Of a stretch of 64,000 bases of DNA, positions 13,019-57,831 are shown one piece after another. The stretch is taken from positions 9,552 to 73,551 of the IMG/VR virus record IMGVR_UViG_3300021171_000010; one strand, written 5' to 3'. This stretch comes from a virus. Made by a program: the position numbers and the translations under genes. The notes under the pieces are model-generated. The model was given only the letters and a program-made list of their open reading frames with translations, searched no databases and was not told the origin of the DNA. How positions within the stretch are numbered: the first letter of the stretch is position 1; every line of letters starts with the position of its first letter.

Positions 13019-13353
13019 AACAAATGGACCGAGATTTGAATATGTCGGAGATGGGGCCGGATAGCCAGCCCGAGATGCCGAGAAACGACCACTATCCCAC
13101 AATTCATTTTGAGGGGCCGGAGGAACTCGGCTTGCCGGAGCACGGCACGATGCTAGTTCATTACAAGGTAAAGCGCGAGGTGGAAACGAAACACCCCCCG
13201 GACCGGCACTGGTATTCTTGCGATATCGAGATTCGAAAAATTTGTGGGGCTGAAGCAGAGAAAGATATGCGACCCTCTAAACGTGATACATCAGCAGAAG
13301 ACAGTTTGGACAGGCTGATGAAAGAGCGCGAAGAGGGCGGTTCACGTGAGTAA
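13015..13353 (+). CDS. Small acidic hypothetical protein
   Basis: ATGA overlap with the upstream gene; 112 aa, highly charged. Confidence 0.55.
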
Positions 13354-25253: not shown

Positions 25254-28200
25254 GTGCCTACGTTTACCGCACCTGACGGTTCGCCTGTTACTTTGACCCC
25301 AGAGCAGCAGACTCAAGCGCTTAGCCTTGCATCTGCTGCTACTCCCGAAGCTACTTTCACTCGGCCTGACGGCACTCCCGTCACATTGGCACCTGAGCAG
25401 CAATCTCAGGCGTTGCAACAGGCCCAATCTCCCGCGCCGATGCTTAGCCGGCCGGATGGCACGCCCCTGGACGTCACAAGTCTTCATGCTGAACAACTGG
25501 CCGAGTTGAATAAGCAAGAGCCGGGTTTCGACCTCCCGTCCGTGTGGAATTCCCTGCCCGCGGAACAAAAAACACCTGACGCGCTAGCGAGATTTTCTGA
25601 AGCTTCGCACCTCGTGCATCAGCAGCCTTTTTCGTTGCCTACGGTGACCAAGATGCTTTCCAATCTCTGGCAGCTTGCCAAAGGGGGCGGCGAGATGATT
25701 TCCAACCTTGCCAAGGGTGGCGCTTTGATAGTTGGTGGATATCCCGGCGCAGGCACCTGGATGGACCCCCAGAAGGTTAAGGAAGTTCAGCAGGGAATCG
25801 CCGAAGGATGGTCTGGAACAGAGAGCGCGGTGACTGGACTCGCCAATCAACTCAAGGAAACAGTGGTGCGGCACGTCATTCAGCCGCCTAACACACTGGA
25901 CCCGGCGGTTAAGCAGCAGAATTTTCTTGATGAGGCTGCGATGGCAGACCAGCAGTCTCAAATTCTAAAAGGTCGCGGCGAGTTCATGAATCGAGTTGGT
26001 GGCGATGAAATATCTTATTTGGAGTCACAGGGATTTCCGGTTCGCCCAGAGCATGCTGCTAATCTTGCTCAAGTGGACCCATTCACTTTTTATCTTTTTG
26101 GCAAAGCCTTTGACGCATTGCCGGCGGCTACTAAAGCGGCTATTCCCACGCCGATTTTAGACGCAATTCAAAAAGCCAGCGATACCGCGACCGATACCGC
26201 CAAACAAATCGTGGGCGGAGGAGCTGCTGCGACTGCTGCAGTGCTGCAAGGTGTAGGCGCGGGCGTGACTAAAGCGGCTCCGCATATTGGGCGCCCCGCG
26301 GCTGCGATTGCCGGCGGAATTCATGCCGGCGTGCCGGGCGCGGTCACGGGACTGGTTTTCGGCAAAGGCATGACCGAATCCCTGTCTGAGATGGGGAAGA
26401 AAATTGCTTCGGCAGCTAAAGGCACCGCTAAATTCGGTGAAGGCGTGTCCAGCGAGGCGGCTACCGGACCGGTATCACAGGCTGCCAAGGACATTATTGA
26501 AGCTGCGCCCGGCGCATTAGCTGGTGTCGCTCAAGGCGCCGCTTTAGATGTGGGACTTCAGGCGGCCACAGCAGAGACGCCGCAGCAACAGCAAAGCTTC
26601 ACCCCGGTGGGGACCGCCATGGGATTGACTCATGGTGCTATGTCTGCTGGCAAGTGGATGCTCGGCGGCCAACTTGCAGGAGAGCGGAACTGGGGCGCTA
26701 CCGCAGGTGTGCCAAATTCGGCAGCGTTTCCCGCGCTGAACACTCTCCACAACGCCGCAATGTCTGCTGCGCCCCCTAAGATTCAGGAAAGAATCAGGGC
26801 GATTCAGCAGCTTAAGCAGGGAGTCAATCCTAACACTGATGTTTTCTACATCCCCGACCCGGTGGGTGTGATGGCTGCTCTGGGTGCAACTCCGGGTGCG
26901 GAACAGCATGCTTTTCAGGCCGGCGCCGCGAATGGAGTTTTCTTGAAGGATTTGCCCGGAGCGAATGGGCAGAAGCGCAACGCAATCATCTTCCAGAACG
27001 TAGATGCGGCCCCACACGAAGCAGTGCACGCGATGGATGCAGCTCTCGGAGCGGAAAGAGTAAATGAGCTTAATCAGTCTGCTAAATCAGACTATGGAGA
27101 CCTTTGGGACCAATTTACCAGTCATTACGCCAATTTGCTCAATGGAGGACAGCCACTTCCTGAAGGCACTACGCCAGGAGATTTTCTGCTTCAGCAATCA
27201 GGATTTGGCCCTGAGGCAGCCCGGAATAAAACCGGCGGAGACGGGTCAGATTGGCAGACTGCTCTGACACCAGACGAAAAGCAAAACGCGATTGACCGCT
27301 ACATCGGCGCCGAGATTCGCGCGGAGAACGGGGACGCGTATTTCAAACGCACGGGCGGCAAAGCGCCGGGATTCACAGACAAAATGGCGAATGCTGCCGG
27401 CGAGCTCGTAAGCCTGCTAGGTGGAAATCCCTTAGAGGGACGCGTTAGCAGCGGACTTCAACTACCGTTGCGATGGGACACGTTTAAACAGGCTGGTCAA
27501 ACTCTTGCCGAGGCCCGGGCTAATGTTCCTCCTGCTTTGCGGCCTGTAGCTAGAACGCCACTAACTACTAAGACGGTGCCGACCACGCCGGAGGAAATCC
27601 AGCAGAATGCGGATGACGCAAGAGTAATTGCTGGACAGCAGCCGGCAGAGAAACCGACTGGCGCCGAGGGCGAGCAGTCGCCCAAAGAAGCCCTGGGAAC
27701 AGTTGCTGAAGCGATTGCAAGCCAGTCCCCAGTGCGATATCAATACCGCGGGGCCGCCGGCGAAACTCCTACAGGGGGAGCCTTGGAAACTGATGTTTCG
27801 CAGCGCCAAGCCGAAATAGCCAAAGCTCAAAACGTGTCTGAGACCGACCGAGATCTTTTCGAGCGCGTCGGATTCCCATACAAAGTAGAAATGACCGGCA
27901 AAGGTCCTCAAGTTCTAGACTGGGCGCCCGTAAATCTCGCCGCAAATGCTTTTCGTTGGTCCAAAGCTCTGTCAGAACTAGCCAAGAAAAATCCAAATGC
28001 TCCGGAGCTTGCACGCAATCCATTTGCATTAGATGTCGCGAAAGGCGAGTTCACAACTGAAGGCTGGCATGATTTGTTAGACACTGCACAGAAAGTATCT
28101 GCAAATCAACTTGCCGGATTTGGCGGGGCTGGACAGAAAATCGTTGTGCCGTCCGATTTAGGGGCTGCGAACGTCTATGCACCGCCTCGTGTTTCTGAAA

Positions 28201-31200
28201 CTGCTCCTTTTCAAGTTGACCAAGCGAAAGCAGATTTTATTAACATGCTTTATGGGGAACGTCCGCCAGAGACACCGCGTGTGTCTCGCAAAAGCGGCGT
28301 CCCCGCCAATGTTGTGGCGCAGAAAATCTCTGCCGCTACTGAGCCCGGAAGGGTAGTTGAGCCAGCGAAGATTCGAGCAAAGCCCAAGCAGGCCGCCGGG
28401 CTTGGCGTGGAACCTGGGACGTTAATAGAGCGCGCGCCATTCAAAGAGCCAATTTTGGGTGTGCCTACCATCCAGGAAGTAAATCCCACCCGAGGTGCTT
28501 TAGAAAATGCCCTGCAGTCCGCCGGTGTTGAAATCCCCAAGATGACAAAAGTCATCCGCCGGTTGAACCTGGAACATATCCATTCAGTTCAACCGGAACC
28601 AAATCTGCCGCGGACCGCGGGCGCCAATGTTCTAACCACCACTGCCGGCTTTATGCCGGTGACGGATTTTGTTGACCGGCTTGATAAAACCTCGCCGGAT
28701 GATTGGCGAAACATGGTGACCAATTATCAGGGCCGATTTGGGGGTGGACAGACCGGTTTGTCAATAGAGGTTGGGGCTGGGGCAAAAAGTCCTGAGGAAG
28801 TGGCAGCTTTGCAATCTGCTACGGAGCGCCAAAGTGAACTAATGCGCGGGGCTTTAAAGAACAGAGATTTTCAAACTGCCGCGGGATATGCGATTAAGGC
28901 GCAGGCAGCTAGAGAGGCTCATGAGGCCGCTACTGGTGGCGGAGGGATGCCAGATTTTCTGCAAAGGTATCACCCCGAGGCTGGATATAAACCTCCGTTT
29001 CCTGAATCGACTTTACAAGCTGCGCCGCGGAATGAAGATGTGGCCAAAGTGGCAGAGGATTATGTGGGCCGACCGCTGCGTCCCATCGGCAATTTGCCAA
29101 TCAGCCCCGACTTAGGCAAGCGCCTCGCGGACTTCGCACAGGAAGCGCAGCACAATCCGGATGACCCTGCTGTGAAGGCTAGTTATGGTGCGTTGAACGC
29201 GCAGATTAAACAGCAGTATGACGCAATCCGGAAAGCGGGCTACACTGTAGAGCCGTGGACCGGCGCAGGCGAGCCTTACAAGTCCAGTGCCGAGATGTCT
29301 GCAGACGTGCGCGACAACAAGCACCTTTTCTTCACGCCAACTGCGCGCAGTTTTAGTGGCCAAGAAAACAACTTGATGCTACAACCCTCTGGCGTGGGTG
29401 ATTTAAGTCATAATGATTTATTCCGCGCGGTGCATGATTTCTTCGGCCACGCCAAGGAGGGGTTGCAGTTTGGTCCCCGGGGTGAATATAATGCTTGGCG
29501 GGAACATTCCCAGATGTTCAGCCCGGAAGCTCAGGGCGCCTTAGCTGCCGAGACTTTGGCTCAAAACGCTTTCGTAAATTTCGGTAGTCATCTCCGCAAC
29601 GCGGAAGGAAACATACCGGCAGTGGGAGAGCCCGGGTATGTTCCGCCTGCTCAGCGACCTTTCGCGGAACAAAAAAATTTCGTGGTGCCCTCCGAACTCA
29701 GGAAAGCCGCACAATTTCAACCACTTCCTCCCGGTGCTGGCAAAGCTCTTGATTGGCGTGACTTAGGGAACGATACTCTTGCTCCCGGCCTTCACATCGA
29801 AGCTATCGCTGGAAAGCCTCCTGCTGTTCCGATTTCTCAGCTCCAAAAAGAGGGCTGGAAAACGATGGACTTTCAAGATAATGGAAGCTTCCATGATTAC
29901 GACAATCGCCCCGTTTTTTACAAAGATAATACGGGAAAATTTCCCGTAACTCCTGATGGAGTAAAGGCGGCTTCTGAGGCCGCTAGTAAAGCTTTTGATG
30001 AAGCTCAAAATTTAGCGTTCGAAGACCGATATGGCGAAGGCCCCGTTCAATATCAGCCTAGACCAATCGAAGAGGCGCGTAGCGAGCCGAAAACGATTCT
30101 AATTCGCCACGGAACGACTGCCCTGAATAACACTGACCCGACCAAAGATTTAATCCGCGGGCACAAAAACGTTCAGCTTAGTGAAGAGGGCCGACAGCAA
30201 GCCGCGGAGCTGGGGCAGCAGCTTAAAACCTCTGGTATCTCCAGAATTTATTCCTCTGATTTAGACCGCACCATGGACACTGCCAAGGAAGTGGCCAAAA
30301 CCACCGGTGCGCCTATAACGCCCGATGCTAGACTAAGGCCCTGGAAACTTGGAAGCACAATCGAAGGAAAACCGACAGCGGATATGCTGCCTAGAATCAA
30401 ATCTCTTACTGAGAGTCCAGATGAACGACCGCCCGGCGGAGAGACCTTCAATGAATTCAAGGACCGTTTTCTTGAAGGCTATCACGCAATCCAGGACGCG
30501 CATCCGAATGAGCACACCGCTATAGTGACTCACTATCGCGGCACGAAGTTGATGGATGCTTGGCGTGCCGCCGGCGTGGATAATGACGAGGTGAAACCAG
30601 ATGTTTTCGATGCATATGACCCGCACAAAAAACCGGGCAGTTATCAGGTGCTCGACAAGCAAGGTAATGAGCTACCTCTAGATACCGCTCGCCCGGAGGG
30701 AGCTCCAATCACTCACCTCTCTGATGCTGAGTTGAACTCGGCGCCGGGCATGACGCGCGAGCAGACTCTGGCAGCCGAGCGAGGGGGAACCCAGCCAGCA
30801 CAGTTCAAGCCTCGTGAGAAACAGGAAAAAGAAATCGAGCTGCGCCACTGGTCAAACATTCCGGGACTCAAAGTGCTTGACCCTCGTTTTCATGGCACCG
30901 GCTTGAGTGGTGAGGAACGCGCCCGAGCCCGTGACTACAAAGAAATTTACGTGCCTCGCACCTATTTTGGAACGAAGGATTACACCAAAGAGCCGAACCT
31001 GGGGCCAGAGCAATACCGCGCTTTTGTGCAGCGCAGCAAGCTCTACCCGTTTCAGGAAGACCCCAAAGATTTGTGGCCCACGCCGGAGGAAGTGGAAAAG
31101 GCCGGATACGCGCCGATGGACTCTCGCGCGGCGAATACGCTTTACGAAAATAAGATTGCGCAGGCTGGTTATGAGGGCTATATTCACCGTGATGCAAAAG

Positions 31201-33164
31201 TCGCTGCGAAGTTCACCAAGACTCCGGTAGAATATTTAGGCTCTATGGCCCAATTCTCACCATCTACCAAACCTCGTGCTATCCGAGCAGCCGCAGTGCA
31301 AGACAAAGACACTGGCCAAATTTTCGAAGGTTTTGCACATTTTGATGCTCACGGAAAAATGCTGGATGCTGGTTATAATCCTCACGACTTGTTTCAGCAC
31401 CCGCAGGGTTTTGTGACAAATGAAGGTGAATTTTTGGACCGAGAACAGGCTTTAAAAAGGGCGAGAGAATTGGACCAAATACGTCCTTCCTACGCCGAAA
31501 ATAAAACGCGAACGCGTGCTATTGCTGAGGCTATAGATATGGCCGCCAAACCCCCATCCTCAGCAGAGCCGGCCGGGCCGGCGCAATTCAAACCCGCGGG
31601 CGCTCCCAAACTGGAAGATTTCCAATCTGAAGACAAAATAGCTAAAGCGCTCGCGCGCCCGGGATGGGCATTACTCACCGCGACCGAAGAGCGAAAAGGT
31701 CCCGGCACTGCTCCGGTAAATGTGAAAGCAAACGAACGCTTATCAGACAGACTCGCTCAGCTCGGTTATGATTTCACTCCTGTAGCTGGCAGCTATAAAG
31801 GCATCGACCAAGGCCAGAATTTTCTCGTGACTGGCATTTCTCCACAGGATGCTCTCACGCTGGGGAAGGAATTCAATCAAGAATCCGTTCTTACTCCCGC
31901 CGGACTGGTGTATCAAGACGGAAGTGTGCACCCCGCCAAGCCGGAAGAGACTACCATAGGCAAAGCGGCCAAGAAAAACGATTTCTATTCCCAAGTCCAG
32001 GGCGGCCCGGCATTTTCGATGGGTATCGATTTCGAGAACAAGATTCCCGCTTCTGAAGCTCCAGTCCCCGCGGCTCGGCCAGAGCAGCAGATGATGGGCG
32101 GAGAGTTTTCGCCCACCAAAGAGCTGGCCGGCAATCAAATGTCGCCCACGGAGCTGAAGGAACATTACCCGGAAGCGATTGTAGTGCCTGATAAGGAAAA
32201 CGGCAAGCCTGTAGGCATCCCTTCGGATATCAAAGAATCTCCACTCTACAAAGAGCATGAGACTGAAGCTGAGGCAGTGGACACTTTCGCTAAACGACTC
32301 GCAGACTTTGCTCGCCAATACAAAGACAACCCAGCTTACAAAGATGGGCTGCGTTGGTATTCTGAATTCGTCCCGCTTTTGAAAAAGCATTTTGGCGAGC
32401 ATGCCCAAATAATGGCTGAGCTCCTGGCGGCCACAAGCCCGCAGAACAATCCACAGCAAAATTTTGCGATGGCGAATGATGCGCTGGAAATGTGGAAGCG
32501 CGGCAAGTTCGATAAACAGCTCGCTAAATTCGAAGAAGGTGCAAAAAAGATTGAAGATGGGACTTGGAAAGATTCCGGGGCGCCGACCGAAGCAAAATTC
32601 ATGGCTGACTGGATTGATGAGCACGATTTAAAACCGCGGCAGAGCAATGGAAAGCTTTATAACATGCACTCTGTGCCAGTGCTTCAGGTGCTCGCCCGCA
32701 AGTGGCTAGAAAACACCGGCGGCCCGAAGACTCAAAACTTCGTCAAGAATCTCTTGGGCACCGGGCATGGCGCCACTTATGATGTGTGGGCTGACCGTAC
32801 CCTTCGCAGAATCGGATATTCAGGGCATCAAGCGCGATGGCGAATCCTGCCAAAGAACGCGGTGGGGGTCTCAGATGCTGATTTTGCTTTCGGCCAGAAA
32901 GTTTTCGCCAAGGCAGCCAAGGAGCTCGGCGTGAGGCCGGATTCTCTGCAGGGCGGTCTGTGGTTCGCAGAAAAACAATTGTGGGCGGACAACGGGTGGG
33001 GTAGACTTGACTTAGGCGATTTTCGGAAAGAAATCCAGAATCGCGAGTTGCTGAACCGCGGCATTGTGCAGCGCTTGGCAGCTACGGAAGCGGCGCAGCA
33101 AGCTCCTCAGACTGCGCAGAGCGGATTTGATTTGGGAATGATTGAACCGAGACCGATTCGATGA
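25254..33164 (+). CDS. Giant polyvalent internal virion protein (zincin HExxH, histidine phosphatase, ART-like, DUF3293-like and other domains)
   Basis: Three 'PDG[ST]P' N-terminal repeats; Gly/Ala hydrophobic region; HEAVH at 27015-29; 'LIRHG' phosphatase; modular C-terminal half. Confidence 0.8.
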   Translation: MPTFTAPDGSPVTLTPEQQTQALSLASAATPEATFTRPDGTPVTLAPEQQSQALQQAQSPAPMLSRPDGTPLDVTSLHAEQLAELNKQEPGFDLPSVWNSLPAEQKTPDALARFSEASHLVHQQPFSLPTVTKMLSNLWQLAKGGGEMISNLAKGGALIVGGYPGAGTWMDPQKVKEVQQGIAEGWSGTESAVTGLANQLKETVVRHVIQPPNTLDPAVKQQNFLDEAAMADQQSQILKGRGEFMNRVGGDEISYLESQGFPVRPEHAANLAQVDPFTFYLFGKAFDALPAATKAAIPTPILDAIQKASDTATDTAKQIVGGGAAATAAVLQGVGAGVTKAAPHIGRPAAAIAGGIHAGVPGAVTGLVFGKGMTESLSEMGKKIASAAKGTAKFGEGVSSEAATGPVSQAAKDIIEAAPGALAGVAQGAALDVGLQAATAETPQQQQSFTPVGTAMGLTHGAMSAGKWMLGGQLAGERNWGATAGVPNSAAFPALNTLHNAAMSAAPPKIQERIRAIQQLKQGVNPNTDVFYIPDPVGVMAALGATPGAEQHAFQAGAANGVFLKDLPGANGQKRNAIIFQNVDAAPHEAVHAMDAALGAERVNELNQSAKSDYGDLWDQFTSHYANLLNGGQPLPEGTTPGDFLLQQSGFGPEAARNKTGGDGSDWQTALTPDEKQNAIDRYIGAEIRAENGDAYFKRTGGKAPGFTDKMANAAGELVSLLGGNPLEGRVSSGLQLPLRWDTFKQAGQTLAEARANVPPALRPVARTPLTTKTVPTTPEEIQQNADDARVIAGQQPAEKPTGAEGEQSPKEALGTVAEAIASQSPVRYQYRGAAGETPTGGALETDVSQRQAEIAKAQNVSETDRDLFERVGFPYKVEMTGKGPQVLDWAPVNLAANAFRWSKALSELAKKNPNAPELARNPFALDVAKGEFTTEGWHDLLDTAQKVSANQLAGFGGAGQKIVVPSDLGAANVYAPPRVSETAPFQVDQAKADFINMLYGERPPETPRVSRKSGVPANVVAQKISAATEPGRVVEPAKIRAKPKQAAGLGVEPGTLIERAPFKEPILGVPTIQEVNPTRGALENALQSAGVEIPKMTKVIRRLNLEHIHSVQPEPNLPRTAGANVLTTTAGFMPVTDFVDRLDKTSPDDWRNMVTNYQGRFGGGQTGLSIEVGAGAKSPEEVAALQSATERQSELMRGALKNRDFQTAAGYAIKAQAAREAHEAATGGGGMPDFLQRYHPEAGYKPPFPESTLQAAPRNEDVAKVAEDYVGRPLRPIGNLPISPDLGKRLADFAQEAQHNPDDPAVKASYGALNAQIKQQYDAIRKAGYTVEPWTGAGEPYKSSAEMSADVRDNKHLFFTPTARSFSGQENNLMLQPSGVGDLSHNDLFRAVHDFFGHAKEGLQFGPRGEYNAWREHSQMFSPEAQGALAAETLAQNAFVNFGSHLRNAEGNIPAVGEPGYVPPAQRPFAEQKNFVVPSELRKAAQFQPLPPGAGKALDWRDLGNDTLAPGLHIEAIAGKPPAVPISQLQKEGWKTMDFQDNGSFHDYDNRPVFYKDNTGKFPVTPDGVKAASEAASKAFDEAQNLAFEDRYGEGPVQYQPRPIEEARSEPKTILIRHGTTALNNTDPTKDLIRGHKNVQLSEEGRQQAAELGQQLKTSGISRIYSSDLDRTMDTAKEVAKTTGAPITPDARLRPWKLGSTIEGKPTADMLPRIKSLTESPDERPPGGETFNEFKDRFLEGYHAIQDAHPNEHTAIVTHYRGTKLMDAWRAAGVDNDEVKPDVFDAYDPHKKPGSYQVLDKQGNELPLDTARPEGAPITHLSDAELNSAPGMTREQTLAAERGGTQPAQFKPREKQEKEIELRHWSNIPGLKVLDPRFHGTGLSGEERARARDYKEIYVPRTYFGTKDYTKEPNLGPEQYRAFVQRSKLYPFQEDPKDLWPTPEEVEKAGYAPMDSRAANTLYENKIAQAGYEGYIHRDAKVAAKFTKTPVEYLGSMAQFSPSTKPRAIRAAAVQDKDTGQIFEGFAHFDAHGKMLDAGYNPHDLFQHPQGFVTNEGEFLDREQALKRARELDQIRPSYAENKTRTRAIAEAIDMAAKPPSSAEPAGPAQFKPAGAPKLEDFQSEDKIAKALARPGWALLTATEERKGPGTAPVNVKANERLSDRLAQLGYDFTPVAGSYKGIDQGQNFLVTGISPQDALTLGKEFNQESVLTPAGLVYQDGSVHPAKPEETTIGKAAKKNDFYSQVQGGPAFSMGIDFENKIPASEAPVPAARPEQQMMGGEFSPTKELAGNQMSPTELKEHYPEAIVVPDKENGKPVGIPSDIKESPLYKEHETEAEAVDTFAKRLADFARQYKDNPAYKDGLRWYSEFVPLLKKHFGEHAQIMAELLAATSPQNNPQQNFAMANDALEMWKRGKFDKQLAKFEEGAKKIEDGTWKDSGAPTEAKFMADWIDEHDLKPRQSNGKLYNMHSVPVLQVLARKWLENTGGPKTQNFVKNLLGTGHGATYDVWADRTLRRIGYSGHQARWRILPKNAVGVSDADFAFGQKVFAKAAKELGVRPDSLQGGLWFAEKQLWADNGWGRLDLGDFRKEIQNRELLNRGIVQRLAATEAAQQAPQTAQSGFDLGMIEPRPIR

Positions 33165-34030: not shown

Positions 34031-34366
34031 ATTCTCACTGCTGAGAAATGTGCCTTCGGCGGTCATGCCCAACTTTTGGGCGATGGCAGAAAACTCCGGT
34101 CCATGTCCTGGCACCGGGCAAGCCGCATGACAGAGCTCGTGCAATAAAAATTGAAGCATCTGGCGCCGGCCGGGGAATTTCTTACTAATGACGACCACGT
34201 TCACCGCACGGTGAAACTCCCCAAAATAGTGAACATGCTGGCAGTCTCCCAGGAACACGCGCAGCCGAGTAGGTAGCGGGTGCCCGATTCGAATGAACTC
34301 GCCGCGCATTAGCTTTACTGCGCGGCGTAGCCATTTTTCCTTGAGCGCTCGTCTAGTGAGAGGCAT
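33926..34366 (-). CDS. SprT-like zinc metalloprotease
   Basis: 'LLHELCH......HGPEF'; 3' end overlaps the convergent gene. Confidence 0.65.
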   Translation of the reverse strand: MPLTRRALKEKWLRRAVKLMRGEFIRIGHPLPTRLRVFLGDCQHVHYFGEFHRAVNVVVISKKFPGRRQMLQFLLHELCHAACPVPGHGPEFSAIAQKLGMTAEGTFLSSENLDDWLHDCVQQSAGTRRSPRSRGARLKVRHSRIS

Positions 34367-34835
34367 CTGGAAAATTTAAAGCCGCGAAATCACCAAAAAG
34401 TTTTTGTGCCGCGGCATCGTAAGCCTTGGCGGCCTCTACTTCATCATCGAAGTATCCTAAGTGTTTCTGGCAAGCATCAAGGACAATATATGCTCGCCAG
34501 CACTGGTCCCTTCGATACCAGCTCACGCCTTTGAAGCGACTGGTTCGTTTGCCTTGACGCGGTAAAATTTGATAACGCACGTTTTGAGCATTAGTGCAGA
34601 CTCGTAAATTATCAAACCAGTTGTGCAGGCCATTGCCATCCCAGTGATTCACTTTTGCGGAATCCGGCGCGTTTACTAGCCATCTATGTAAGTAAACGAG
34701 CGAACCAGCGATGCGCGCTCTGGCATAAATAGTTTTCTCTCTTCGGTCCGCATGCCACTTATGAAGATTAACACTAGCAAACACCGAATCATCCACCAAG
34801 GCAACTAATCCCTGAGAAAGGGGAACGACTTTCAC
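34353..34835 (-). CDS. HNH-AP2 homing endonuclease
   Basis: 'LSQG..ALVDD', 'LHR', 'HWDGNGL.N...NLR', 'SRFKGVSW...W.A....LGYF....AA.AYD'. Confidence 0.88.
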   Translation of the reverse strand: MKVVPLSQGLVALVDDSVFASVNLHKWHADRREKTIYARARIAGSLVYLHRWLVNAPDSAKVNHWDGNGLHNWFDNLRVCTNAQNVRYQILPRQGKRTSRFKGVSWYRRDQCWRAYIVLDACQKHLGYFDDEVEAAKAYDAAAQKLFGDFAALNFPDASH

Positions 34836-36103: not shown

Positions 36104-36695
36104 TTTTAGTTTCAACACCGTTTTTTTCCAACCATTCGTGAGTAAAGGGAGTCTGCCGGCCGGCAAAGGCTTCGTCAAAAGCGAACAGACATTGCTCAAC
36201 TGTAGGGCCGATGCCCACCAAGCAGGTAGGCGAATTCAAATCCCCTTTGAAAGCGGCCCAGTCGCCTGTTTTCAACCGCACCAGGGTAGGATTCAACCGA
36301 GTATGGGGCGAGGAAATTTCTAGAGAGGCTTTTTTCTGCGCTTCCAGACTTTCCAGGTTCAGCTTGATGGCTGCCTTGTAGTCGGCCTCGACCTGCTTTT
36401 GAAATTCGCTGTCCCACCGCGCGCTGTCATCCAAAATCGCATCCAGGCGTTCACACACCTTGATAAAAGTGTTCTCTGCAGCGACAAGGGCTTCCCCAGG
36501 CAACGCCTTTTCGGCGGAGGGCACGGAAGACTCATTGTATTCCATGTTCTGTGCCTTCACGTTACAGGCGGTAATCATCATGCCGATGATTTGCAAACAG
36601 GTGTTCACCTGCTGCTGAGTCGCCAACTCCCGCATCGAAAGCTGAATTTGTGGAGGATTCACGATTTGATTCTGCCTAAATGATTGATTGCCCAT
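35949..36695 (-). CDS. Hypothetical protein (C-terminal 'GIGPTVEQ..AFD' HicB-like segment)
   Basis: Long ORF in operon orientation; 3' end overlaps the next gene. Confidence 0.45.
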   Translation of the reverse strand: MGNQSFRQNQIVNPPQIQLSMRELATQQQVNTCLQIIGMMITACNVKAQNMEYNESSVPSAEKALPGEALVAAENTFIKVCERLDAILDDSARWDSEFQKQVEADYKAAIKLNLESLEAQKKASLEISSPHTRLNPTLVRLKTGDWAAFKGDLNSPTCLVGIGPTVEQCLFAFDEAFAGRQTPFTHEWLEKNGVETKNEQAPLDKNRNANPDATPLPGKDRKRNRRSPRPPSLPSDGEDSSSSPTGGA

Positions 36696-37167
36696 ACTTT
36701 AAAAAGTTTGTCCTCGCAAATTCTCCAAAAAATTTCCGAGCCGCAGCATCATATGCCTTAGCAGCCTTTTCTGCCGTGTCGAATCTTCCAAGGTATTTGA
36801 GCCGATTGTTTACTCGAATACTAGCTTGCCACATCCCATTATGCCAGCTAACGCCCTTGAAACCGGAGGTATTGTTTCGGCTCATACCCTTGTTTTGCTG
36901 ATTTTGGTGCCGAGTAACACGAAGATTATAGCGCTGATAATTTAGAGAATTTCCATCAGCATGGTCTCCTTGTGTTTTAGGATTATCAAGTCCCAAAATT
37001 AAACGATGCATCAGGATAAGCTTACGCATGCCTTTGCATCTAATACTGCGCGCGGCATAATATCCGCTATTCACTTCCATTGCATACCAATTCCATTGGC
37101 TGAGCCATTCAAAATCAGCATCATCAACTAAAGCAAATTGACCCTTTGTCAAGGGAATCTGTTTCAT
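36676..37167 (-). CDS. HNH-AP2 homing endonuclease
   Basis: 'LTKGQFALVDDAD', 'MHRLILG', 'DHADGN', 'NTSGFKGVSW', AP2 motif. Confidence 0.9.
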   Translation of the reverse strand: MKQIPLTKGQFALVDDADFEWLSQWNWYAMEVNSGYYAARSIRCKGMRKLILMHRLILGLDNPKTQGDHADGNSLNYQRYNLRVTRHQNQQNKGMSRNNTSGFKGVSWHNGMWQASIRVNNRLKYLGRFDTAEKAAKAYDAAARKFFGEFARTNFLKYGQSII

Positions 37168-40548: not shown

Positions 40549-41031
40549 TCAGGGGAAATTAAGCACCGCGAAGGCACCAAAATATTTACGAGCAGCGGTA
40601 TCATAGCATTCGGCAGCTAATCGTAAATCTCTAAAATATCCCAAGTGCTTCTTTTTACCGTTCACCTGTATTTGCACCACCCAACTTTTATTGCTAATTT
40701 TCCACGAGACGCCCTTACGCCCAGAAGCATTATCGATACGCAAGCGCTGATTTTGATTGTTGTTCGTCCTAGTGGCTACTCTTAAATTATGTTCCCTATT
40801 GTTAAGGCCATCGCCATCCCAATGGTCCCCCTCAATTTTGGGATTTTTAATGCCTAAAATCAGGCGGTGCATTCTTATTTGAAGCTGCTTGCCGTTCGGC
40901 CCCGGAACATTCCGCACTGCATAGAAAGTTTTTCCGTGCTTCTGGGTCCACCACTTCCATTGATTGAGCCAAGAATAGTTCCAATCATCTACAATAGTAG
41001 ATTTACCTTGCGTAAGCGAAATGCGTTTCAT
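40549..41031 (-). CDS. HNH-AP2 homing endonuclease
   Basis: 'LTQGK..IVDD', 'MHRLILG', 'DHWDGDGLNN...NLR', AP2 motif. Confidence 0.9.
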   Translation of the reverse strand: MKRISLTQGKSTIVDDWNYSWLNQWKWWTQKHGKTFYAVRNVPGPNGKQLQIRMHRLILGIKNPKIEGDHWDGDGLNNREHNLRVATRTNNNQNQRLRIDNASGRKGVSWKISNKSWVVQIQVNGKKKHLGYFRDLRLAAECYDTAARKYFGAFAVLNFP

Positions 41032-47295: not shown

Positions 47296-47490
47296 TTAGT
47301 ATTTGGACATCACGCGAGACTTGATGTCCTGAGCGGGTTTTCCAGTAGGACGCCAATTACTGTGCTCGACTGCGTTTAGCAATCGTTTCTGGCGAGCCGC
47401 CTTTGCAGGCGTTGTGGATTTTGCTTTGATACCTCCCGGAGTCCGCACCTGGACCCGGCCTTTTCCAACAGATTTTATACGCACTGGCAT
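47296..47490 (-). CDS. Small basic protein
   Basis: 64 aa, Lys/Arg-rich. Confidence 0.5.
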   Translation of the reverse strand: MPVRIKSVGKGRVQVRTPGGIKAKSTTPAKAARQKRLLNAVEHSNWRPTGKPAQDIKSRVMSKY

Positions 47491-47981
47491 GTTTTAATGG
47501 TGGGAAAATTGAGCCGCGCAAACGAGCCAAAATATCTTGCAGCCAAAGCATCATAAGCTTTAGCTGCCTCGATTTCATCAGTAAACAATCCTCCATAAAT
47601 GTGAAGATAAAAATACCGAAGTTGCACAACCCATCGTTGTTTATCTGTCTTCCACGATACTCCACGAAAACGACTCGTTTTCCCAATTTTCAACTGGCGG
47701 AACGCAGAAGAATTTTGCTGATTAGAACAGGCCCTCAAATTCGAGCGAAGGCAATTTAAGCCATCTCCGTCTTTATGGTCTGTTTTTATTTTCCGGTCGG
47801 TAAGTCCCAAAATTACGCGATGTAAATAGCACTTTGTAAAGGAGCCGTCAGGTTTGACGGCGTGTCCGACCGCATAGGTGCGGCGTCCATATTTACGCGC
47901 CCACCAAGATTGCTGAGATACACGAACAAAGTCTTTTCGACTAACTCGTGCGAATCCTCCACTTGTAAGTAGTAATTTCAC
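47475..47981 (-). CDS. HNH-AP2 homing endonuclease
   Basis: GTG start at 47981; 'LHRVILG', 'DHKDGDGLN...NLR', 'SRFRGVSW', 'AAKAYD'. Confidence 0.85.
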   Translation of the reverse strand: MKLLLTSGGFARVSRKDFVRVSQQSWWARKYGRRTYAVGHAVKPDGSFTKCYLHRVILGLTDRKIKTDHKDGDGLNCLRSNLRACSNQQNSSAFRQLKIGKTSRFRGVSWKTDKQRWVVQLRYFYLHIYGGLFTDEIEAAKAYDALAARYFGSFARLNFPTIKTCQCV

Positions 47982-48230
47982 GCTGCAATTCGCAAACCTA
48001 ATTCTGCGCCGCGGTCTACAAGAGACCGAAGCTGTTGGTTGAGCGGCGCGCAAGACTGCCGCAGCGATTTAATGCTGGCTGCCTTTTTAACGGCGCCCAG
48101 TTCCTCGTCATTCTCGATACGCATTATCTGCACATCGACCGATGCTAACTCTGCTTGAATCTGCTTGACTCGCTTCGGAATTCTCCGAGCTCGATTAGCC
48201 AGCAGGTGTTTTTTGGTATTGTGTTGTCAT
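47978..48230 (-). pseudogene. Small coiled-coil ORF broken by one extra A in an A6 run
   Basis: ATG ACA ACA CAA TAC CAAAAAA CAC CTG...; removing one A gives an ~83-aa ORF that ends in a GTGA overlap with the HNH start. Confidence 0.5.
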
Positions 48231-49395: not shown

Positions 49396-50890
49396 AACGA
49401 TTTAAGGGCAGGTTATCCGGGCACCAGTCTGAATCAGTCAAAGTCATAAGGGCATCCAGGTTGTTTAGCTTACCCCGGACTGCACTCCAAATTTTCTTTT
49501 CTATTGTGCCAGCAGCGAAAAGCACTTTATAAAACGAATGAGATTTGCCGCTTTCCCTGGGAAGCCGGAAGAAAAGCTGGCGCATAGTCTCGGCAGAAAA
49601 GCATGGGCTCGCGATGCCGGCCCGGGGATGGCCGCCATGCAGGTCATGCAGCGACATCGACACCCCGCCGGCCTTGGAATTCACTATCAGTTTACGGAGG
49701 TGATTACTCTGGAAAGCGGCGAGGGTCTTCTCCCGGGTCTTGATTGTTGTGCCGTCGATAATGCCGGCACCGGGGAACTTCTTCAACAATTCTTCAATCG
49801 TTTGACGGTAGTTCACGAAAAACACCACTGATAATCCGCGGTCCGCATAGGTCTCGCCGAGCTCAGTCATAACCGGCACTTTTAGTAGCTCCACAGTCTG
49901 CTGCGCGCGCAGTATTTTGGTGAGCGGATGGTCCGGCGATTTATCATTTTCACTAGCATGCTGTTTTAGCGTTTCGACTGCTTCACGCATTATCCCATAA
50001 GCCCGGTCCATCTCTTCCGGCTTGTCCAAATCATAGAGTTCAGCGTCAATCTGACAGGTGGGAAAACCGGGAATGCTTGCCACAGTCACTCTGACGCCAC
50101 GAGCAGGAATAATCTGGTCCCTGATGGATTTCATAATTTCCAGTTGCCGGGACTTGCTAGCAAACCATTTCAAGCCACGCGTGTGCACATCGAACCGGAC
50201 TTCCTGCTTCGCAAGCCAGCGTTTAAACGATGGGCGCCGCATTGCTGCACCAAACTTTGTCTGCACTAATTCATCAGTGGAGTCATTATGTAAATCGAGA
50301 AGATAGCCGAGAGCTCGCATATCCAGGGGCGAGCTGGCCGGCGTAGCCGACAAGCAAAGAGTCTTAATTCCTTGCCGCTTTGCCGCAAGACCGAGCTCGC
50401 AGTTCAAGGAATCGATACCGTTGAAGCGCTGCGACTCATCAAAAATTACTAGGCGCACTGCTGGATTGAAAACGAAACTGCCGTAGTGGGCGCTAATTTT
50501 TTTAGTGACAAGGCAGTGAATTCCAGCCGGGTGGCAATAGCAAGGCACGAAGCGAGCGAAATCAACTTTGCACTGGCAATTCTCACACTGGAAATATTCC
50601 CGGGCTGCCCGGTATTCGGTCCAGGTGCCAAATTTTTGGTTTCCAGTGCGAAGAAGTTCATAATTGCAAAACGAAAACTTGTCATTAAAGGTCTCAGCAG
50701 CAAGGTCCCAGGCAGTCTTACTAATCTTAGGACCAACAATTAGGGCGGGTAGTTTTAACTGGGAGGCTACCCAGGCGCCCACGTAGGTCTTGCCGACTCC
50801 TCCATCTGACCAATCGACTACGGAGTCATGTTTCTGCAATAAAGTCAGAAGCTGCTCTGCAGGTTCGACTTGGTGAGGTCTTAGGGGCAC
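49394..50890 (-). CDS. SF2 (SNF2-like) helicase with a Cys/His insertion
   Basis: 'LRPHQ', 'GVGKT', 'DESQ', 'SATP', 'AGGVSMSL', 'Q...R..R', 'GTIE'. Confidence 0.85.
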   Translation of the reverse strand: MPLRPHQVEPAEQLLTLLQKHDSVVDWSDGGVGKTYVGAWVASQLKLPALIVGPKISKTAWDLAAETFNDKFSFCNYELLRTGNQKFGTWTEYRAAREYFQCENCQCKVDFARFVPCYCHPAGIHCLVTKKISAHYGSFVFNPAVRLVIFDESQRFNGIDSLNCELGLAAKRQGIKTLCLSATPASSPLDMRALGYLLDLHNDSTDELVQTKFGAAMRRPSFKRWLAKQEVRFDVHTRGLKWFASKSRQLEIMKSIRDQIIPARGVRVTVASIPGFPTCQIDAELYDLDKPEEMDRAYGIMREAVETLKQHASENDKSPDHPLTKILRAQQTVELLKVPVMTELGETYADRGLSVVFFVNYRQTIEELLKKFPGAGIIDGTTIKTREKTLAAFQSNHLRKLIVNSKAGGVSMSLHDLHGGHPRAGIASPCFSAETMRQLFFRLPRESGKSHSFYKVLFAAGTIEKKIWSAVRGKLNNLDALMTLTDSDWCPDNLPLNR

Positions 50891-51366
50891 GGAAAATTGA
50901 GACGTGCGAATTCTCCAAAATATTTACGCGCCGCAACATCATAAGCCCGGGCCGCTTCTTCTGCCGTTTTGAACCGCCCTAAAACAATTGATTTATAGTT
51001 TACACAAATCATCCCCACCCAAGGGGTCTGGGGGCGTCCTTTACAAGCAGAAACTCCTTTATATCCCGATTTATTATTTCGACGAAGGCCTTGATTTGCG
51101 TGATTTTGTGAATTAGTTGCGGGACGAAGATTGTGTCGCTGATTATCTAAGCCGTTAAGATTTTTATGCTTCCCCTGAATTTTAGAATCCGTAAGTCCTA
51201 AAATTTGTCGATGCATTAGATAATTTTTGCCTTTCCATCCTTCCTTACGCATCGCATACCAAGAGCCTCGAAAACAAACCGCTTGCCATCTCCATTGATT
51301 TAGCCAATCAAAATCAGCATCATCAACAAACGCAACTTTGCCCCGAGTTAGAATAATCTGTTTCAA
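50881..51366 (-). CDS. HNH-AP2 homing endonuclease
   Basis: 'LTRGKVAFVDDAD', 'MHRQILG', 'NGLDNQRHNLR', 'SGYKGV', 'AARAYD'. Confidence 0.88.
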   Translation of the reverse strand: MKQIILTRGKVAFVDDADFDWLNQWRWQAVCFRGSWYAMRKEGWKGKNYLMHRQILGLTDSKIQGKHKNLNGLDNQRHNLRPATNSQNHANQGLRRNNKSGYKGVSACKGRPQTPWVGMICVNYKSIVLGRFKTAEEAARAYDVAARKYFGEFARLNFPCP

Positions 51367-54417: not shown

Positions 54418-54719
54418 TCGAAAATCTCCGGGGTGGCGTTGGCTTGATTAACGGACAATTGGCTGAGCTTCACAGCAGCTAAGCGCAGAGCTTCAATTGA
54501 ACCTTTATCCTTTTCGGAAGGTTCAATTGCATCTAGTGTATCTGCGGCGAGCGAGATCATTTGACCCGCGTTCGTCCAGCCTACACAGATACCTCGCAGA
54601 AAAGCTTTGCGCTCCTCAGCAGGACAGAGATTCACGAATTCTTGGATTTGACTTCTCATTTCCAATTGCGCTTCTCTCGCTGCCCCTAACTGCTCTTTGT
54701 ATTTTTCTTGTATGTTCAT
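54414..54719 (-). CDS. Hypothetical protein
   Basis: ATGA-coupled ORF. Confidence 0.5.
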   Translation of the reverse strand: MNIQEKYKEQLGAAREAQLEMRSQIQEFVNLCPAEERKAFLRGICVGWTNAGQMISLAADTLDAIEPSEKDKGSIEALRLAAVKLSQLSVNQANATPEIFE

Positions 54720-55669
54720 TGTTTGTTTATTTGTGAATTTTCTCCAGCCAAAAGCTTTTTGTAATACTGCGAGAAACCATCACTGACGCCGCGCACGATT
54801 TGCTTCCAGTGGTCATCGAAAAGGGTCTGCTTGATTTCCTCTTGCTCTTCAGCGAGCAGGTCGGTGCCCAGTTCTGCCAGGAGCGGGCCGATATCCTCAG
54901 GGCCATTTACTAACTTGCCCGATTCTTTCAGATGCTGAATCGCCTTCAACCAACGAGCCTCTGTGCGGTATCGACTCACAATCGACTGAATTAACTCGCC
55001 CGGCTGAGCTTTGCGGTTCAGCGGTCCAACCAAGTGCTTTTCCTTGAATCGGTCAGAGACAATTTTGGCCGTCATTGGTGCTGTGCCGCTTTGGCTTTCA
55101 GCATGCTGCTTGCCGTAATTCTTGATTACGATACCTTCAATTTTAGTGCCACCCAAGATTGAATCATGTTCTACCAAATCAAACACGGGGCAATGCTGCA
55201 ATTCTGCCACGGTATCCTTAAAAAATACGATTCCGTTACCTCGATAATAGGTGGGCACCGGAGTGATGTCGAATACTTTCGCCCAGGCGTCTACTTCCTC
55301 CGGGCAATACTTGCCTGATGGGTCGCGAACATCGAAAAGCACGAGGTGCCCATGAGGAATACAGGCGTAGGTAAGCACGTTATGCTTCGGCTTAGCCAAA
55401 TACTCGCACTGGAAGGTCCAACCCTCCGGAATCTGACCCGCATGCCACATCGCCCGCACAGTGTTTACACCAGCTTCAAACATTCCAGGCGCCGCGAGAT
55501 TAATTTCCGTGCTTTTGCTGAAGCAGTGGAGCTGCGTGCCGCCGGGAATTGATTCTACACTGAAAGAAAACTGGGAGCCGTCAATTTTCTCCTGCACCCA
55601 GACTTCCCCGTCAAAAATGTCCTGAGTGTAGCGATGCCCCAGGGCGTAGATTTTGGGTATCGATTTCAC
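54716..55669 (-). CDS. Rnl2-like RNA ligase
   Basis: Nucleotidyltransferase motifs 'QEKIDGS', 'CEY', 'LFDV', 'EGIVIK', 'AKIVS..FKE'. Confidence 0.8.
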   Translation of the reverse strand: MKSIPKIYALGHRYTQDIFDGEVWVQEKIDGSQFSFSVESIPGGTQLHCFSKSTEINLAAPGMFEAGVNTVRAMWHAGQIPEGWTFQCEYLAKPKHNVLTYACIPHGHLVLFDVRDPSGKYCPEEVDAWAKVFDITPVPTYYRGNGIVFFKDTVAELQHCPVFDLVEHDSILGGTKIEGIVIKNYGKQHAESQSGTAPMTAKIVSDRFKEKHLVGPLNRKAQPGELIQSIVSRYRTEARWLKAIQHLKESGKLVNGPEDIGPLLAELGTDLLAEEQEEIKQTLFDDHWKQIVRGVSDGFSQYYKKLLAGENSQINKQ

Positions 55670-56034
55670 AGTAGTCCATCACCACGTTTAAACGTGACCG
55701 CTACGCAGGCGATGCGGCGCGTTGCGCTCGCTTGGTGCCTGTCTGCTGTTTCTCGGTCTGGGTGCACAGCATCTGCTATGCTGCCGTCATAGAAATTCAC
55801 CCAGCGGGTTTCCGGCTCGGGCACGTTTATCAAATCCATTCCGTCAATCCCATTTGGCATCCATCGGCCATCAGCGGAAAAAGCTGTCACCGACTCCTTA
55901 CCACCCTCTTCCGTGATTAAGGCCACGATAGGCTGCAACGTATCTTGATAATACGTATTTGCTGAGGATTCGATGATGCGCGCCTTGCGGCCGTCGCGAG
56001 TCTGAACTGGTTTCGTTAAATCAATCATGCGCAT
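55666..56034 (-). CDS. Phage hypothetical protein (TRDGRKARI type)
   Basis: 'KPVQTRDGRKARI...PIVALI...DL' motif seen in many phage proteins. Confidence 0.6.
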   Translation of the reverse strand: MRMIDLTKPVQTRDGRKARIIESSANTYYQDTLQPIVALITEEGGKESVTAFSADGRWMPNGIDGMDLINVPEPETRWVNFYDGSIADAVHPDRETADRHQASATRRIACVAVTFKRGDGLL

Positions 56035-56037: not shown

Positions 56038-56400
56038 TTAGCACACCGGTGGCTCGCTACTCAACAAGATTTTTTCTTTAGGCACAATCTTGCCCAGCAG
56101 GCAGCGGCCGGGAGATTCTTTCAACGGCTGCGTAAGATAACTCATGAAAGCCTGCGCGTCGGCTTCGCTGCGGAACCTGAAGGGATATGGGTCTTGAATT
56201 ATCTCCATTCCAGGCAGAACGAAGAAACCAATTTCATACGGCGCATCTCTCCACTCCGGATTGATTGCGACCTGACGCACCGACTTGAAATATTTCAGCG
56301 GTGGGATTGGCCCTCTGATGGCCCCAGGGATTGCCAAAGGTGCAACTGCTAGGCCGGCAGCGAAAAGACTGAGCGACTTAAAGAAGCTCCGGAGGTTCAT
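56038..56400 (-). CDS. Small exported protein with a major-capsid-like motif
   Basis: Tat-like signal 'MNLRSFFKSL...'; NPEWRDAPYEIGF compared with capsid NPAWLSAPYEVGF. Confidence 0.6.
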   Translation of the reverse strand: MNLRSFFKSLSLFAAGLAVAPLAIPGAIRGPIPPLKYFKSVRQVAINPEWRDAPYEIGFFVLPGMEIIQDPYPFRFRSEADAQAFMSYLTQPLKESPGRCLLGKIVPKEKILLSSEPPVC

Positions 56401-56409: not shown

Positions 56410-56859
56410 TCATTGCTGGGGAGGTGGATTTCCTTGGCATTGATATCCACTGTAGGTGTCTACCAGCATGCCATATCCAGGCGCCGGGCACATGCAAGCT
56501 TCCCGCGCAACATACCAGTCCATCGTGAAGTCGCCGCCCATCACAACAGGCCCAGGAGCATCGGATTGGCTACAGTGGGTCCAGGAAGTGAATCCCCAAT
56601 TCAAAGATGAAAGGCTGCCGCAGATGTAGTTAGAAGCCTGCACCAGCACAAGGTCACCATCCGAAAGAGACACCGCGGTGTTGGCGCCAGGGGCAATCGT
56701 CTGATAGGTGGTTTGTCCGAATACCGTAATAGTGATGCCATATTGGGCAGTCACTTTAGGATTCGAAAATAATGTGAGACCGCACCCAGCCGCTGCCTTG
56801 GCGGAGTCAGTGAGGAATAGTGAAGCGGCCAGTAAAAGGCCGGCGAGTAGTTTTTTCAT
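56410..56859 (-). CDS. Secreted Cys-containing protein
   Basis: Sec signal peptide 'MKKLLAGLLLAASLFLTDSAKA'; six Cys. Confidence 0.6.
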   Translation of the reverse strand: MKKLLAGLLLAASLFLTDSAKAAAGCGLTLFSNPKVTAQYGITITVFGQTTYQTIAPGANTAVSLSDGDLVLVQASNYICGSLSSLNWGFTSWTHCSQSDAPGPVVMGGDFTMDWYVAREACMCPAPGYGMLVDTYSGYQCQGNPPPQQ

Positions 56860-57062
56860 TTTCGCTTTCTTTTGGTTGTATTGCGGCGGATTTGCCGCAA
56901 AATTCGTGGTATCTCGATTGTGTTATGACACGTCACAACGTTTCGAATTAATCTCAATTCCTCTCTAATATCCATCAGCACTGCTAGCTGGGCTTGGTCA
57001 AAACTAACATGGTTGGCACAATCCGGCGTGACATTCCAGTTAACGTTTTGTTGGTCGTGCAT
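56856..57062 (-). CDS. Hypothetical protein
   Basis: ORF with basic C-terminus. Confidence 0.5.
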   Translation of the reverse strand: MHDQQNVNWNVTPDCANHVSFDQAQLAVLMDIREELRLIRNVVTCHNTIEIPRILRQIRRNTTKRKRK

Positions 57063-57131
57063 AAAATTTAAAAAGACACCAGAGTAAAAGCGCCAGGACG
57101 GTGGCGAAAAGGTCTGTTAAATCAGAAGAGT

Positions 57132-57572
57132 CTAGCCACATATCTGTTTCATTGCCTCGCGCGCCTGCTTCGCGAGGCGAGCGATTTCCTCCTGGTTGTC
57201 CAGAATCATCCCGCCCATAGACGCAGCATACACCTCTCGCTCATAACTGACCTGCTTCTGGCGCTGTAGGTGATTCACAATACAAGCGGCTTCGAACTTC
57301 GACTCTGCCTTTTCAAGCCTCGCCTGCAGCAATTCAAGTCCCTGCTGCTTGAGTTTCACGTAGGCTTTCTGCTCACGCACCTCTGCTTCCAGCTCGGAGG
57401 CTTTGGCGCGCCACATTTCCTGACGCGCCAGTGAGGTGTTATTGGCTTCTACACATGACGCATAGCAAAGCCAAGGCAGCCACTCTTCGCCACGATAAAG
57501 AATACGGGATTCGCTGCTTGCTAGCTTAAACGGCACCAGCCAGGAAAGCCATTTCTTAAACGTCAAGGACAC
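57132..57572 (-). CDS. Coiled-coil hypothetical protein
   Basis: ORF track. Confidence 0.5.
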   Translation of the reverse strand: MSLTFKKWLSWLVPFKLASSESRILYRGEEWLPWLCYASCVEANNTSLARQEMWRAKASELEAEVREQKAYVKLKQQGLELLQARLEKAESKFEAACIVNHLQRQKQVSYEREVYAASMGGMILDNQEEIARLAKQAREAMKQICG

Positions 57573-57831
57573 GGCGAAAACCTTTCTTATAGAGCTCCTG
57601 AGCGAGTATTGTTGCTGTGCCTAGCACGCAGTCCTCTGACAGGTCCCCAATTTCTCGGTGGAGCAATTCATGAATCAACGTATCAAGAAAATCCTGTGGC
57701 CGAAGGCGAGGGTCAATTATAATCGTGCCGTCCGGTCTGCACAATCCCCAGGTAGGCCGGCCCTTGCCATAGGGATTCTTGCTGAGCTTACGCTCGGTGA
57801 TTTTCCGCACGATTATTCTCGGCGAACTCAT
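57556..57831 (-). CDS. Minimal zincin-like protein
   Basis: 'WGLC...I.IDP.L......TLIHELLH......E'. Confidence 0.65.
   Translation of the reverse strand: MSSPRIIVRKITERKLSKNPYGKGRPTWGLCRPDGTIIIDPRLRPQDFLDTLIHELLHREIGDLSEDCVLGTATILAQELYKKGFRRVLDV

Follow-up and report, generated by a model that had tools for sequence, protein, structure and literature searches.

A small gene on the minus strand (56038-56400) of a stretch of phage DNA, taken from IMG/VR record IMGVR_UViG_3300021171_000010, encodes a 120-amino-acid (aa) protein that combines a predicted export leader with a short segment resembling the putative major capsid protein of the same phage, a protein of 443 aa. The stretch, referred to here as the window, covers 64,000 nucleotides (nt), bases 9552-73551 of the 73,551-bp record, which is rated 100% complete and represents an uncultured phage of ~73.5 kb; public sequencing runs containing the stretch are labelled soil metagenome. 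The initial annotation suggested that a capsid-derived fragment had been repurposed in this protein, possibly as a decoy. A capsid-like module is indeed present at the profile level. Conservation of the motif and the local profile similarity support the view that the small protein, with its export leader, contains a fragment that is capsid-like and probably derived from the capsid, whereas the decoy role is not supported. We favor the reading that part of the capsid gene was captured long ago and gave rise to an exported, moron-like accessory protein that acts outside the cytoplasm. Taken as a whole we give it about an even chance: the gene family, its leader, the local profile similarity and a distribution that is patchy and leaves out bacterial genomes are shown, homology over convergence, export and the entire functional part being inferred. 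The features that carry the argument are as follows:

56038-56400, minus strand: small-protein gene, 120 aa, product starting MNLRSFFKSL
56332-56400, minus strand: Tat-type leader, residues 1-23, MNLRSFFKSL followed by an Ala/Gly/Leu-rich hydrophobic stretch
56203-56283, minus strand: capsid-like core as aligned by hhalign, residues 40-66, a strand, an NPEW turn or short helix and a strand; holds the motif at 56224-56262
56155-56193, minus strand: second conserved block, residues 70-82, DP[WY]PxRFRxxEDA, followed by a helix at residues 79-90
6773-8104, plus strand: putative major capsid protein, 443 aa, named on conservation, structural-block position and ESM Atlas neighbors
7685-7768, plus strand: segment of the 443-aa protein, residues 305-332, matched by the small-family profile

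Capsid-like segments in small proteins of the lineage

The similarity was first noticed as a match between two short motifs, the sequences and coordinates of which are correct: NPEWRDAPYEIGF, residues 47-59 of the small protein (nt 56224-56262, minus strand), and NPAWLSAPYEVGF, residues 312-324 of the 443-aa open reading frame (ORF) at 6773-8104 (nt 7706-7744, plus strand), are identical at nine of 13 positions, with an additional I/V pair. BLASTP of this pair alone yields 29.3 bits (10/18 identities, E 2e-5), a value that overstates the case because the reader was free to pick any protein pair. An all-versus-all BLASTP of the 85 ORFs of the window (20,271 aa) places the pair at E 0.003 per query, and the estimate of chance that had been called for leaves the single-sequence match borderline: the pair ranks first among non-paralogous pairs, and one in 30 whole-set shuffles reached at least 29.3 bits.

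More can be learned from the family to which the small protein belongs. It has two close relatives, 91% and 46% identical, and an exhaustive profile search of a 1.8-billion-protein library (E<=0.001) returned 66 representative clusters, a new and phage-only family with all true members being 57-141 aa long. Two of the 66 clusters are spurious, consisting of long repetitive proteins, one of them a TPR protein with INPExDDAYxNLG repeats. With the exception of Tat-signal models, Pfam and NCBIfam families each match at most two of 41 aligned members, these matches being isolated and weak, and there is no PHROG family for the small protein. Three conserved features emerge from the 41-sequence alignment, first a near-invariant MNRRxF leader (R4 and F6 in at least 90%) followed by a mildly hydrophobic stretch, second NPEWxxAPYE (N47, A53 and E56 invariant; P48, W50 and Y55 in at least 90%), and third a DP[WY]PxRFRxxEDA block with invariant R75. 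The leader and the NPEWxxAPYE core are the strongest-conserved of these; the motif singled out initially is the most conserved part of the family, and it is here that local profile similarity to the capsid-like family is found.

The consensus for export through the twin-arginine translocation (Tat) pathway is (S/T)-R-R-x-F-L-K near the N-terminus. Proteins with Tat signals as modelled by PF10518 and TIGR01409 resemble the small family, which likewise displays MNRRxF[FL]+, a mildly hydrophobic Ala/Gly-rich stretch and then basic residues. Pfam TAT_signal PF10518 matches 14 of the 41 members (best E 4.9e-4) and NCBIfam TIGR01409 matches 13 (best E 2e-4), both at E<=0.1. The description of a Tat-like leader with a single arginine was right for the window copy, while the consensus of the family has the complete twin-arginine pair, MNRRxF. 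The leader lacks a visible canonical AxA cleavage site and may therefore remain as a membrane anchor. The mature part of the small family matches no known Tat substrate family, the window copy has LR, and export is a prediction.

The HHsearch-type comparison proposed at the outset recovers local profile similarity to the capsid-like family. With three sequences representing the small family, hhalign against the 443-aa family gives 80% (E 1.4e-5), and with 41 sequences the value rises to 93.2% (E 2.8e-7, 28 columns), pairing residues 40-66 of the small protein with 305-332 of the larger one. Such growth of the signal with alignment depth argues against chance, as do the shuffled controls. The latter were redone on trimmed alignments following erratic outliers with untrimmed ones: the gap-trimmed alignment scores 51.7, compared to a mean of 12.9 (standard deviation 2.5, maximum 23.7) for 250 column shuffles, none of which came near the real score, and to 13.3 and 13.5 for reversed alignments. 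The six conserved motif positions of the small family (N, P, W, A, Y and E) all coincide with conserved positions of the 443-aa family, among which N312, P313, W315, A318, E321 and G323 do not vary, while L316 and Y320 are nearly constant. In a six-frame search of related phage records, the small-family profile matches the capsid-like gene in 24 of the 24 records bearing it, at a constant position, per-genome E ranging between 3e-7 and 2e-4; the alignment extends in several of these to ...GSFERLVPERY, spanning ~40 profile positions. The value in the genome of the window itself is 5.3e-6, still ~5e-4 when multiplied by the 85 possible query proteins, again a point against chance.

Structure models offer a tentative comparison. 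The AlphaFold2 (AF2) model of the small protein (mean predicted local distance difference test score, pLDDT, 80.7; 90-98 over residues 31-60 and across the shared segment) displays a compact alpha/beta domain behind the leader. Its leader helix spans residues 3-19, after which come strands 35-38 and 43-46, the short helix 48-52, strand 55-59 and helix 79-90. For the 443-aa protein, the AF2 model is unusable overall (pLDDT 32). The best-scored stretch of this low-confidence model comprises strands 296-301 and 306-311, helix 313-316 and strand 320-327, and the order of elements (hairpin, short helix, strand) is the same in both models, with the low confidence of the larger one to be kept in mind. 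The best fold matches of the small domain resemble ferredoxin-like or RRM-like proteins only weakly, and no fold is assigned.

The similarity does not continue into the next conserved block. An additional, permuted echo between DPYPFRF of the small protein and DQRPLR of the capsid had been proposed, and did not hold: the sole such alignment has an i-Evalue of 14 (hmmsearch, in a homologue), hhalign produces none, and the second conserved block (residues 70-82) has no significant counterpart in the 443-aa protein. One relative, G019 L119:1171-1581 (minus strand, 136 aa), carries the family Tat leader with the conserved blocks swapped, DPWPIRFR preceding a degenerate motif. This relative, with its blocks in capsid order, was examined for the echo and set aside; hhalign against the capsid profile gives 0.2% and its significant match to the family profile is confined to the leader.

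A second capsid-like module was also encountered. In G002, a gene adjoining a family member encodes the same Tat leader and linker, behind which lies a counterpart of residues 16-55 of the 443-aa protein (hhalign 89%, E 2.2e-6, 40 columns). Searching 25 records with the capsid profile added two small ORFs that lack a leader and end in the same module, one in G027 (E 2.3e-7) and one in G028 (E 0.005), as well as a small ORF of G029 that weakly matches residues 350-386. The small ORFs with these other capsid-like segments are:

G002, L109:1790-2149, minus strand
G027, L136:975-1340, minus strand
G028, L137:696-1160, plus strand
G029, L138:894-1277, minus strand

By BLASTP, the N-terminal-type module is 46-54% identical to the capsid-like protein across 34-35 residues, the lowest E being 4e-7. 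The three copies of this type have common features absent from the capsid, such as ALEKxSP, hence they may stem from one capture and have later been shuffled between contexts. The G027 protein is rare, with two relatives only, and the window's own genome has no small ORF with these other segments of the 443-aa protein. As a control, profiles of 26 large-protein families were run against 794 small ORFs of 11 genomes; only the capsid-like family matched below E 1e-3, excluding genes cut at piece ends and true paralogues, and four marginal matches (E 0.002-0.005) fell within two other families. That small ORFs of the lineage contain a further capsid-like module of clear homology, in one case behind the same leader, extends the phenomenon beyond the reported gene and weakens chance as an explanation for this gene as well.

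Descent, convergence and the name of the 443-aa protein

Several observations weigh against the reading that we favor. The similarity is short and local, 28-40 residues, and the single-sequence match is borderline after look-elsewhere correction (P ~0.03-0.07). A shallow local profile of eight members gives capsid matches only at E 0.002-0.009, and four other small families among the 21 tested also match some large protein at E<=0.01, two through clear domain sharing, one at E 5e-5 and one marginally. Searched against the big library, the 3-sequence family profile also matched the unrelated TPR-repeat protein (INPExDDAYxNLG) at E 3.4e-6, implying that such a pattern can recur without homology. 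Two of 150 untrimmed column shuffles scored above the real alignment, the highest at 134, outliers that we attribute to gap-rich columns. The complete 57.8-kb record G004 holds a small-family member and no capsid-like family, even by profile at E<=10. Furthermore, co-variation between the motif and the phage's own capsid is lacking (9 genomes), and fold searches with the small model list no capsid (Foldseek against PDB, E 3.1; BFVD, E 0.12; VIA-align, Z 3.2). As for the leader, the window copy has L3 in place of the first arginine of the pair (MNLRSFFK, LR rather than RR) and matches neither Tat model; the 91%-identical relative has RR.

Five of these points, namely the 28-40 columns, the corrected P, the comparable profile match of the TPR protein, the occurrence without a capsid-like family in G004 and the fold searches, are also what can be said for chance or convergence. 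By that account NPxWxxAxYE is a favorable strand-turn-strand pattern that arose independently in two unrelated proteins, which have no evolutionary or functional link. We regard this as unlikely when set beside the depth-dependent profile score, the trimmed shuffles, the own-genome E, the coinciding conserved positions and the second module. The local similarity is in our judgment quite probably real, and for the shared segment common descent is, as far as sequence can tell, more likely than convergence.

What the 443-aa protein should be called is a related matter. Its family is conserved far beyond any other large one of the lineage: mean pairwise identity is 0.85 (8 related genomes) versus 0.27-0.63 in 25 other large families, the DNA polymerase family being at 0.52. 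More than 1000 relatives (1025) exist, 70-91% identical among the matches listed. The protein also has seven invariant cysteines (C10, C79, C84, C113, C366, C399 and C408). Its size and its location in the plus-strand structural block fit a capsid protein, and those ESM Atlas neighbors that have any Pfam assignment carry HK97-fold families, PF13252 (Phage_capsid_3), PF25209 (Phage_capsid_4, N4-gp56 type) and PF20036 (Gp13-like), with scores of 0.96-0.97 and 28-41% of members. The 443-aa protein itself, however, has no Pfam or PHROG match, nor do 14 relatives; a PDB profile search returned nothing, as did tblastn against 50,697 phage records at E<=10. An N4-gp56 identity was tried and abandoned, as a profile of seven rows against 80 N4-gp56 relatives gave an hhalign probability of 0.2%. 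The capsid label given initially has indirect evidence in the Atlas neighbors, the conservation and the structural block, but lacks hidden Markov model, profile or PDB support, and for this reason we keep the name putative major capsid protein. Neither the presumed terminase (G000:3996-5930) nor the presumed portal (G000:6982-9108) nor the other large structural ORFs have a Pfam or PHROG match.

Distribution and genomic setting

A motif-based scan located small-family members at six viral loci and none in bacterial or archaeal genomes (one genome each of 185,579 species). The capsid-like family is present in four of the five phage records that hold small-family members, and among 19 records selected by the capsid gene alone a small-family member is clear in four and partial in three. 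The surroundings of the small gene vary: it lies after the gene of the giant protein in three phages, by a helicase gene in one and by an RNA ligase gene here. Patchy presence and changing neighbors indicate that it is a dispensable, mobile accessory gene. Its absence from most related phages speaks against the role as an assembly anchor that had been put forward as one option.

Exchange between the two motif copies within genomes was also considered. In G003, 28 of 30 nucleotides are identical between its two copies. Over nine genomes, however, permutation gave no sign of own-genome co-variation or gene conversion, the motif agreeing with its own capsid at 28.1 of 51 nucleotides versus 27.8 for capsids of others (P 0.34), and at 7.9 versus 7.6 of 17 residues (P 0.17). 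Synteny through the RNA ligase was likewise followed without success: 13 loci with 34-40% identical ligases have no small-family member, and the five searched records of those loci have no capsid-like gene, hence these are unrelated phages.

Within the window, the plus-strand half carries structural genes, among them those of tail-fibre-like proteins, of a 2636-aa giant protein and of two nucleotide-sugar epimerases, and the minus-strand half carries replication genes, encoding DNA polymerase, helicase, exonucleases, RNA ligase and five HNH-endonuclease paralogues. The small gene stands in a tightly packed same-strand row, with the 149-aa gene, a 9-nt gap, the 120-aa ORF, a 3-nt gap, the 122-aa ORF and the RNA ligase following one another. 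Its immediate neighbors are:

56410-56859, minus strand: upstream neighbor, 149 aa, Cys-rich, with a Sec-type or lipoprotein-like leader (MKKLLAGLLLAASLF...AAAGC)
54716-56034, minus strand: downstream neighbors at the head of the minus-strand replication module, a 122-aa ORF (55666-56034) and RNA ligase (54716-55669)

The early timing ascribed to the small gene is inferred from its strand and neighbors only. Promoters and terminators around the gene occur at the counts expected from shuffling (6 versus 4.9 and 11 versus 7.5), and no transcription unit can be called. One soil metatranscriptome run contains small contigs at 55254-55466, 56772-57039 and 57258-57600 and none over 56038-56400, which is neutral with respect to expression. 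Just upstream of the 149-aa gene, at 56949-57147, a low-depth contig has 201 other letters in place of 197 bases, representing a strain variant; it belongs to the DNA run from which the window may originate.

The adjoining 149-aa protein, with its Sec or lipoprotein-like leader and a weak match to a PHROG family of 'virion structural protein' (E 0.028), brings up a further explanation, in which the small protein is a component of the virion or its assembly: a membrane-tethered assembly anchor, a cement protein or a spanin-like lysis partner of the 149-aa protein. We consider this very improbable. The 149-aa neighbor adjoins the small gene in none of the 11 other loci examined, the small gene is absent from most related phages, and the leader topology would place the domain outside the cytoplasm, away from head assembly. 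A two-component spanin consists of a type-II membrane protein with a coiled-coil periplasmic domain and a small lipoprotein, encoded by a conserved gene pair; the model of the small protein has neither a coiled coil nor the Pro-rich lipoprotein features typical of spanins.

Further observations concern the rest of the genome. The five paralogous HNH endonuclease genes of the replication module are 39-55% identical (34353-34835, 36676-37167, 40549-41031, 47475-48053 and 50881-51366, all on the minus strand), and a sixth HNH gene, G000:3530-4003 (plus strand), lies outside the window, just before a 644-aa ORF upstream of it. The capsid-like gene is flanked by plus-strand ORFs at 5636-6136, 6140-6601 and 8213-9118, which have a common C-terminal domain of ~145 aa (38-56% identity) and may be head decoration or fibre proteins, although no family is matched; the ORF at 8213-9118 also displays a run of 11 glycines. 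The ORFs 9091-10689 and 14857-15792 (plus strand) have a common C-terminal region of 289 aa (54% identity, E 2e-100) and bracket two tail-fibre-like genes, 11819-13018 and 13346-14911. Within the structural block, before the capsid-like gene, a glycosyltransferase-like ORF and two nucleotide-sugar epimerase paralogues (1321-2220, 2948-3883 and 3865-4815, plus strand) form a sugar-gene trio that may modify glycans of the virion or the host surface. For the 2636-aa ORF (25254-33164, plus strand), the only matches are PHROGs of unknown function. A serine-recombinase-type ORF (G000:249-977, plus strand, L260; PHROG integrase/DNA invertase, E 3e-38), located outside the window at the left end of the record, suggests that the phage may be temperate or have an invertible segment.

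Possible roles of the exported domain

In the reading that we favor, a piece of the capsid gene captured long ago would be the likeliest origin of the core of the small protein. This core, of ~28-40 residues (strand, NPxW turn, strand), would be homologous to residues ~300-340 of the 443-aa protein. The small protein would be exported or anchored, placing the domain in the periplasm or tethering it to the membrane, a topology suggested by the positive N-terminus, the hydrophobic helix, the basic residues that follow and the lack of an AxA site. A domain so placed would have no steady-state contact with assembling heads or with capsid sensors of the cytoplasm. Our committed guess is a dispensable, moron-like function, in which the protein either interferes with superinfection by related phages or masks a ligand of the envelope, where the capsid-derived module would contact the same partner as in the capsid or simply supply the same small fold.

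Small exported or membrane proteins that exert superinfection exclusion or receptor masking are established in phages, such as T4 Imm and Sp, T5 Llp and P22 SieA. Like the small family, these are small, leader-bearing, dispensable, patchy in distribution and located among non-structural genes, and they serve as candidates for how the protein may work rather than as relatives. We know of no exclusion protein with a Tat leader or a capsid-like segment, and our literature search turned up neither a capsid-fragment decoy in phages nor an exclusion protein that depends on Tat.

An alternative is that the displayed capsid segment is a functional mimic or decoy, the partner of which would be a capsid sensor of the host or else a shell-binding factor of phage or host origin; it might titrate this partner, drag it to the membrane or the Tat translocon, or poison capsid assembly of related superinfecting phages. 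We find this rather improbable, despite a number of attractive points. The 443-aa protein is extremely constrained, 0.85 mean identity versus 0.52 for the DNA polymerase family, and with no easy mutational escape it would make a good immune target. The conserved positions coincide exactly, at least two different segments of the 443-aa protein recur in small accessory ORFs, both kinds behind a Tat leader, and the patchy, mobile distribution resembles that of an arms-race gene. Moreover, short capsid segments are known triggers: the Lit protease recognizes the Gol peptide of T4 gp23, and CapRel-SJ46 recognizes the major capsid protein as well as Gp54, a small protein of Bas11 (PMC12926258, PMC13728456). 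These systems demonstrate that a short internal capsid stretch or a small phage protein can be recognized by the host (PMC12926258, PMC13728456). They are, however, host sensors acting in the cytoplasm (PMC12926258, PMC13728456), whereas here the phage encodes an extra copy with an export leader. The leader thus points to another compartment than that of the known capsid sensors and of assembly, and it is on this ground that a cytoplasmic decoy is disfavored. In addition, the motif lacks co-variation with its own capsid, its residues sit in the well-ordered core of the modelled domain rather than in a free peptide, and no partner supports mimicry.

Reuse of capsid parts is known from elsewhere, as exemplified by the capsid-homologue size-redirecting proteins of phage satellites, the cargo-loading peptides of encapsulins and Gag-derived restriction factors such as Fv1. 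The concept in common is that a piece or copy of a shell protein targets shells or interferes with them; none of these systems, though, is known to place a short internal capsid segment within an exported mini-domain. A bolder extension, which we hold to be quite doubtful, is that the lineage repeatedly copies segments of its immutable capsid (at least residues 16-55 and ~300-340) into small mobile proteins, some with a Tat leader, that act as capsid-mimicking competitors. If true, such competitors would titrate or relocate a capsid-recognizing host factor or poison the heads of related superinfecting phages, forming a new class of anti-defence or exclusion proteins and doing for phages what Gag-derived restriction factors do elsewhere.

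Anti-defence and exclusion functions yet to be recognized reside mainly in the small accessory proteins of phages, most of which offer no handle. The present family offers one, in the form of an export leader combined with a module common to the most conserved structural protein of the lineage, with a second case in relatives. If functional mimicry is at work, it would represent a way to protect an immutable capsid and would point to the capsid surface that is recognized. If the module is only an old exaptation, the 66 clusters would still constitute a new family for use in annotation and a clear example of how a fragment of a structural gene can become a new exported mini-domain.

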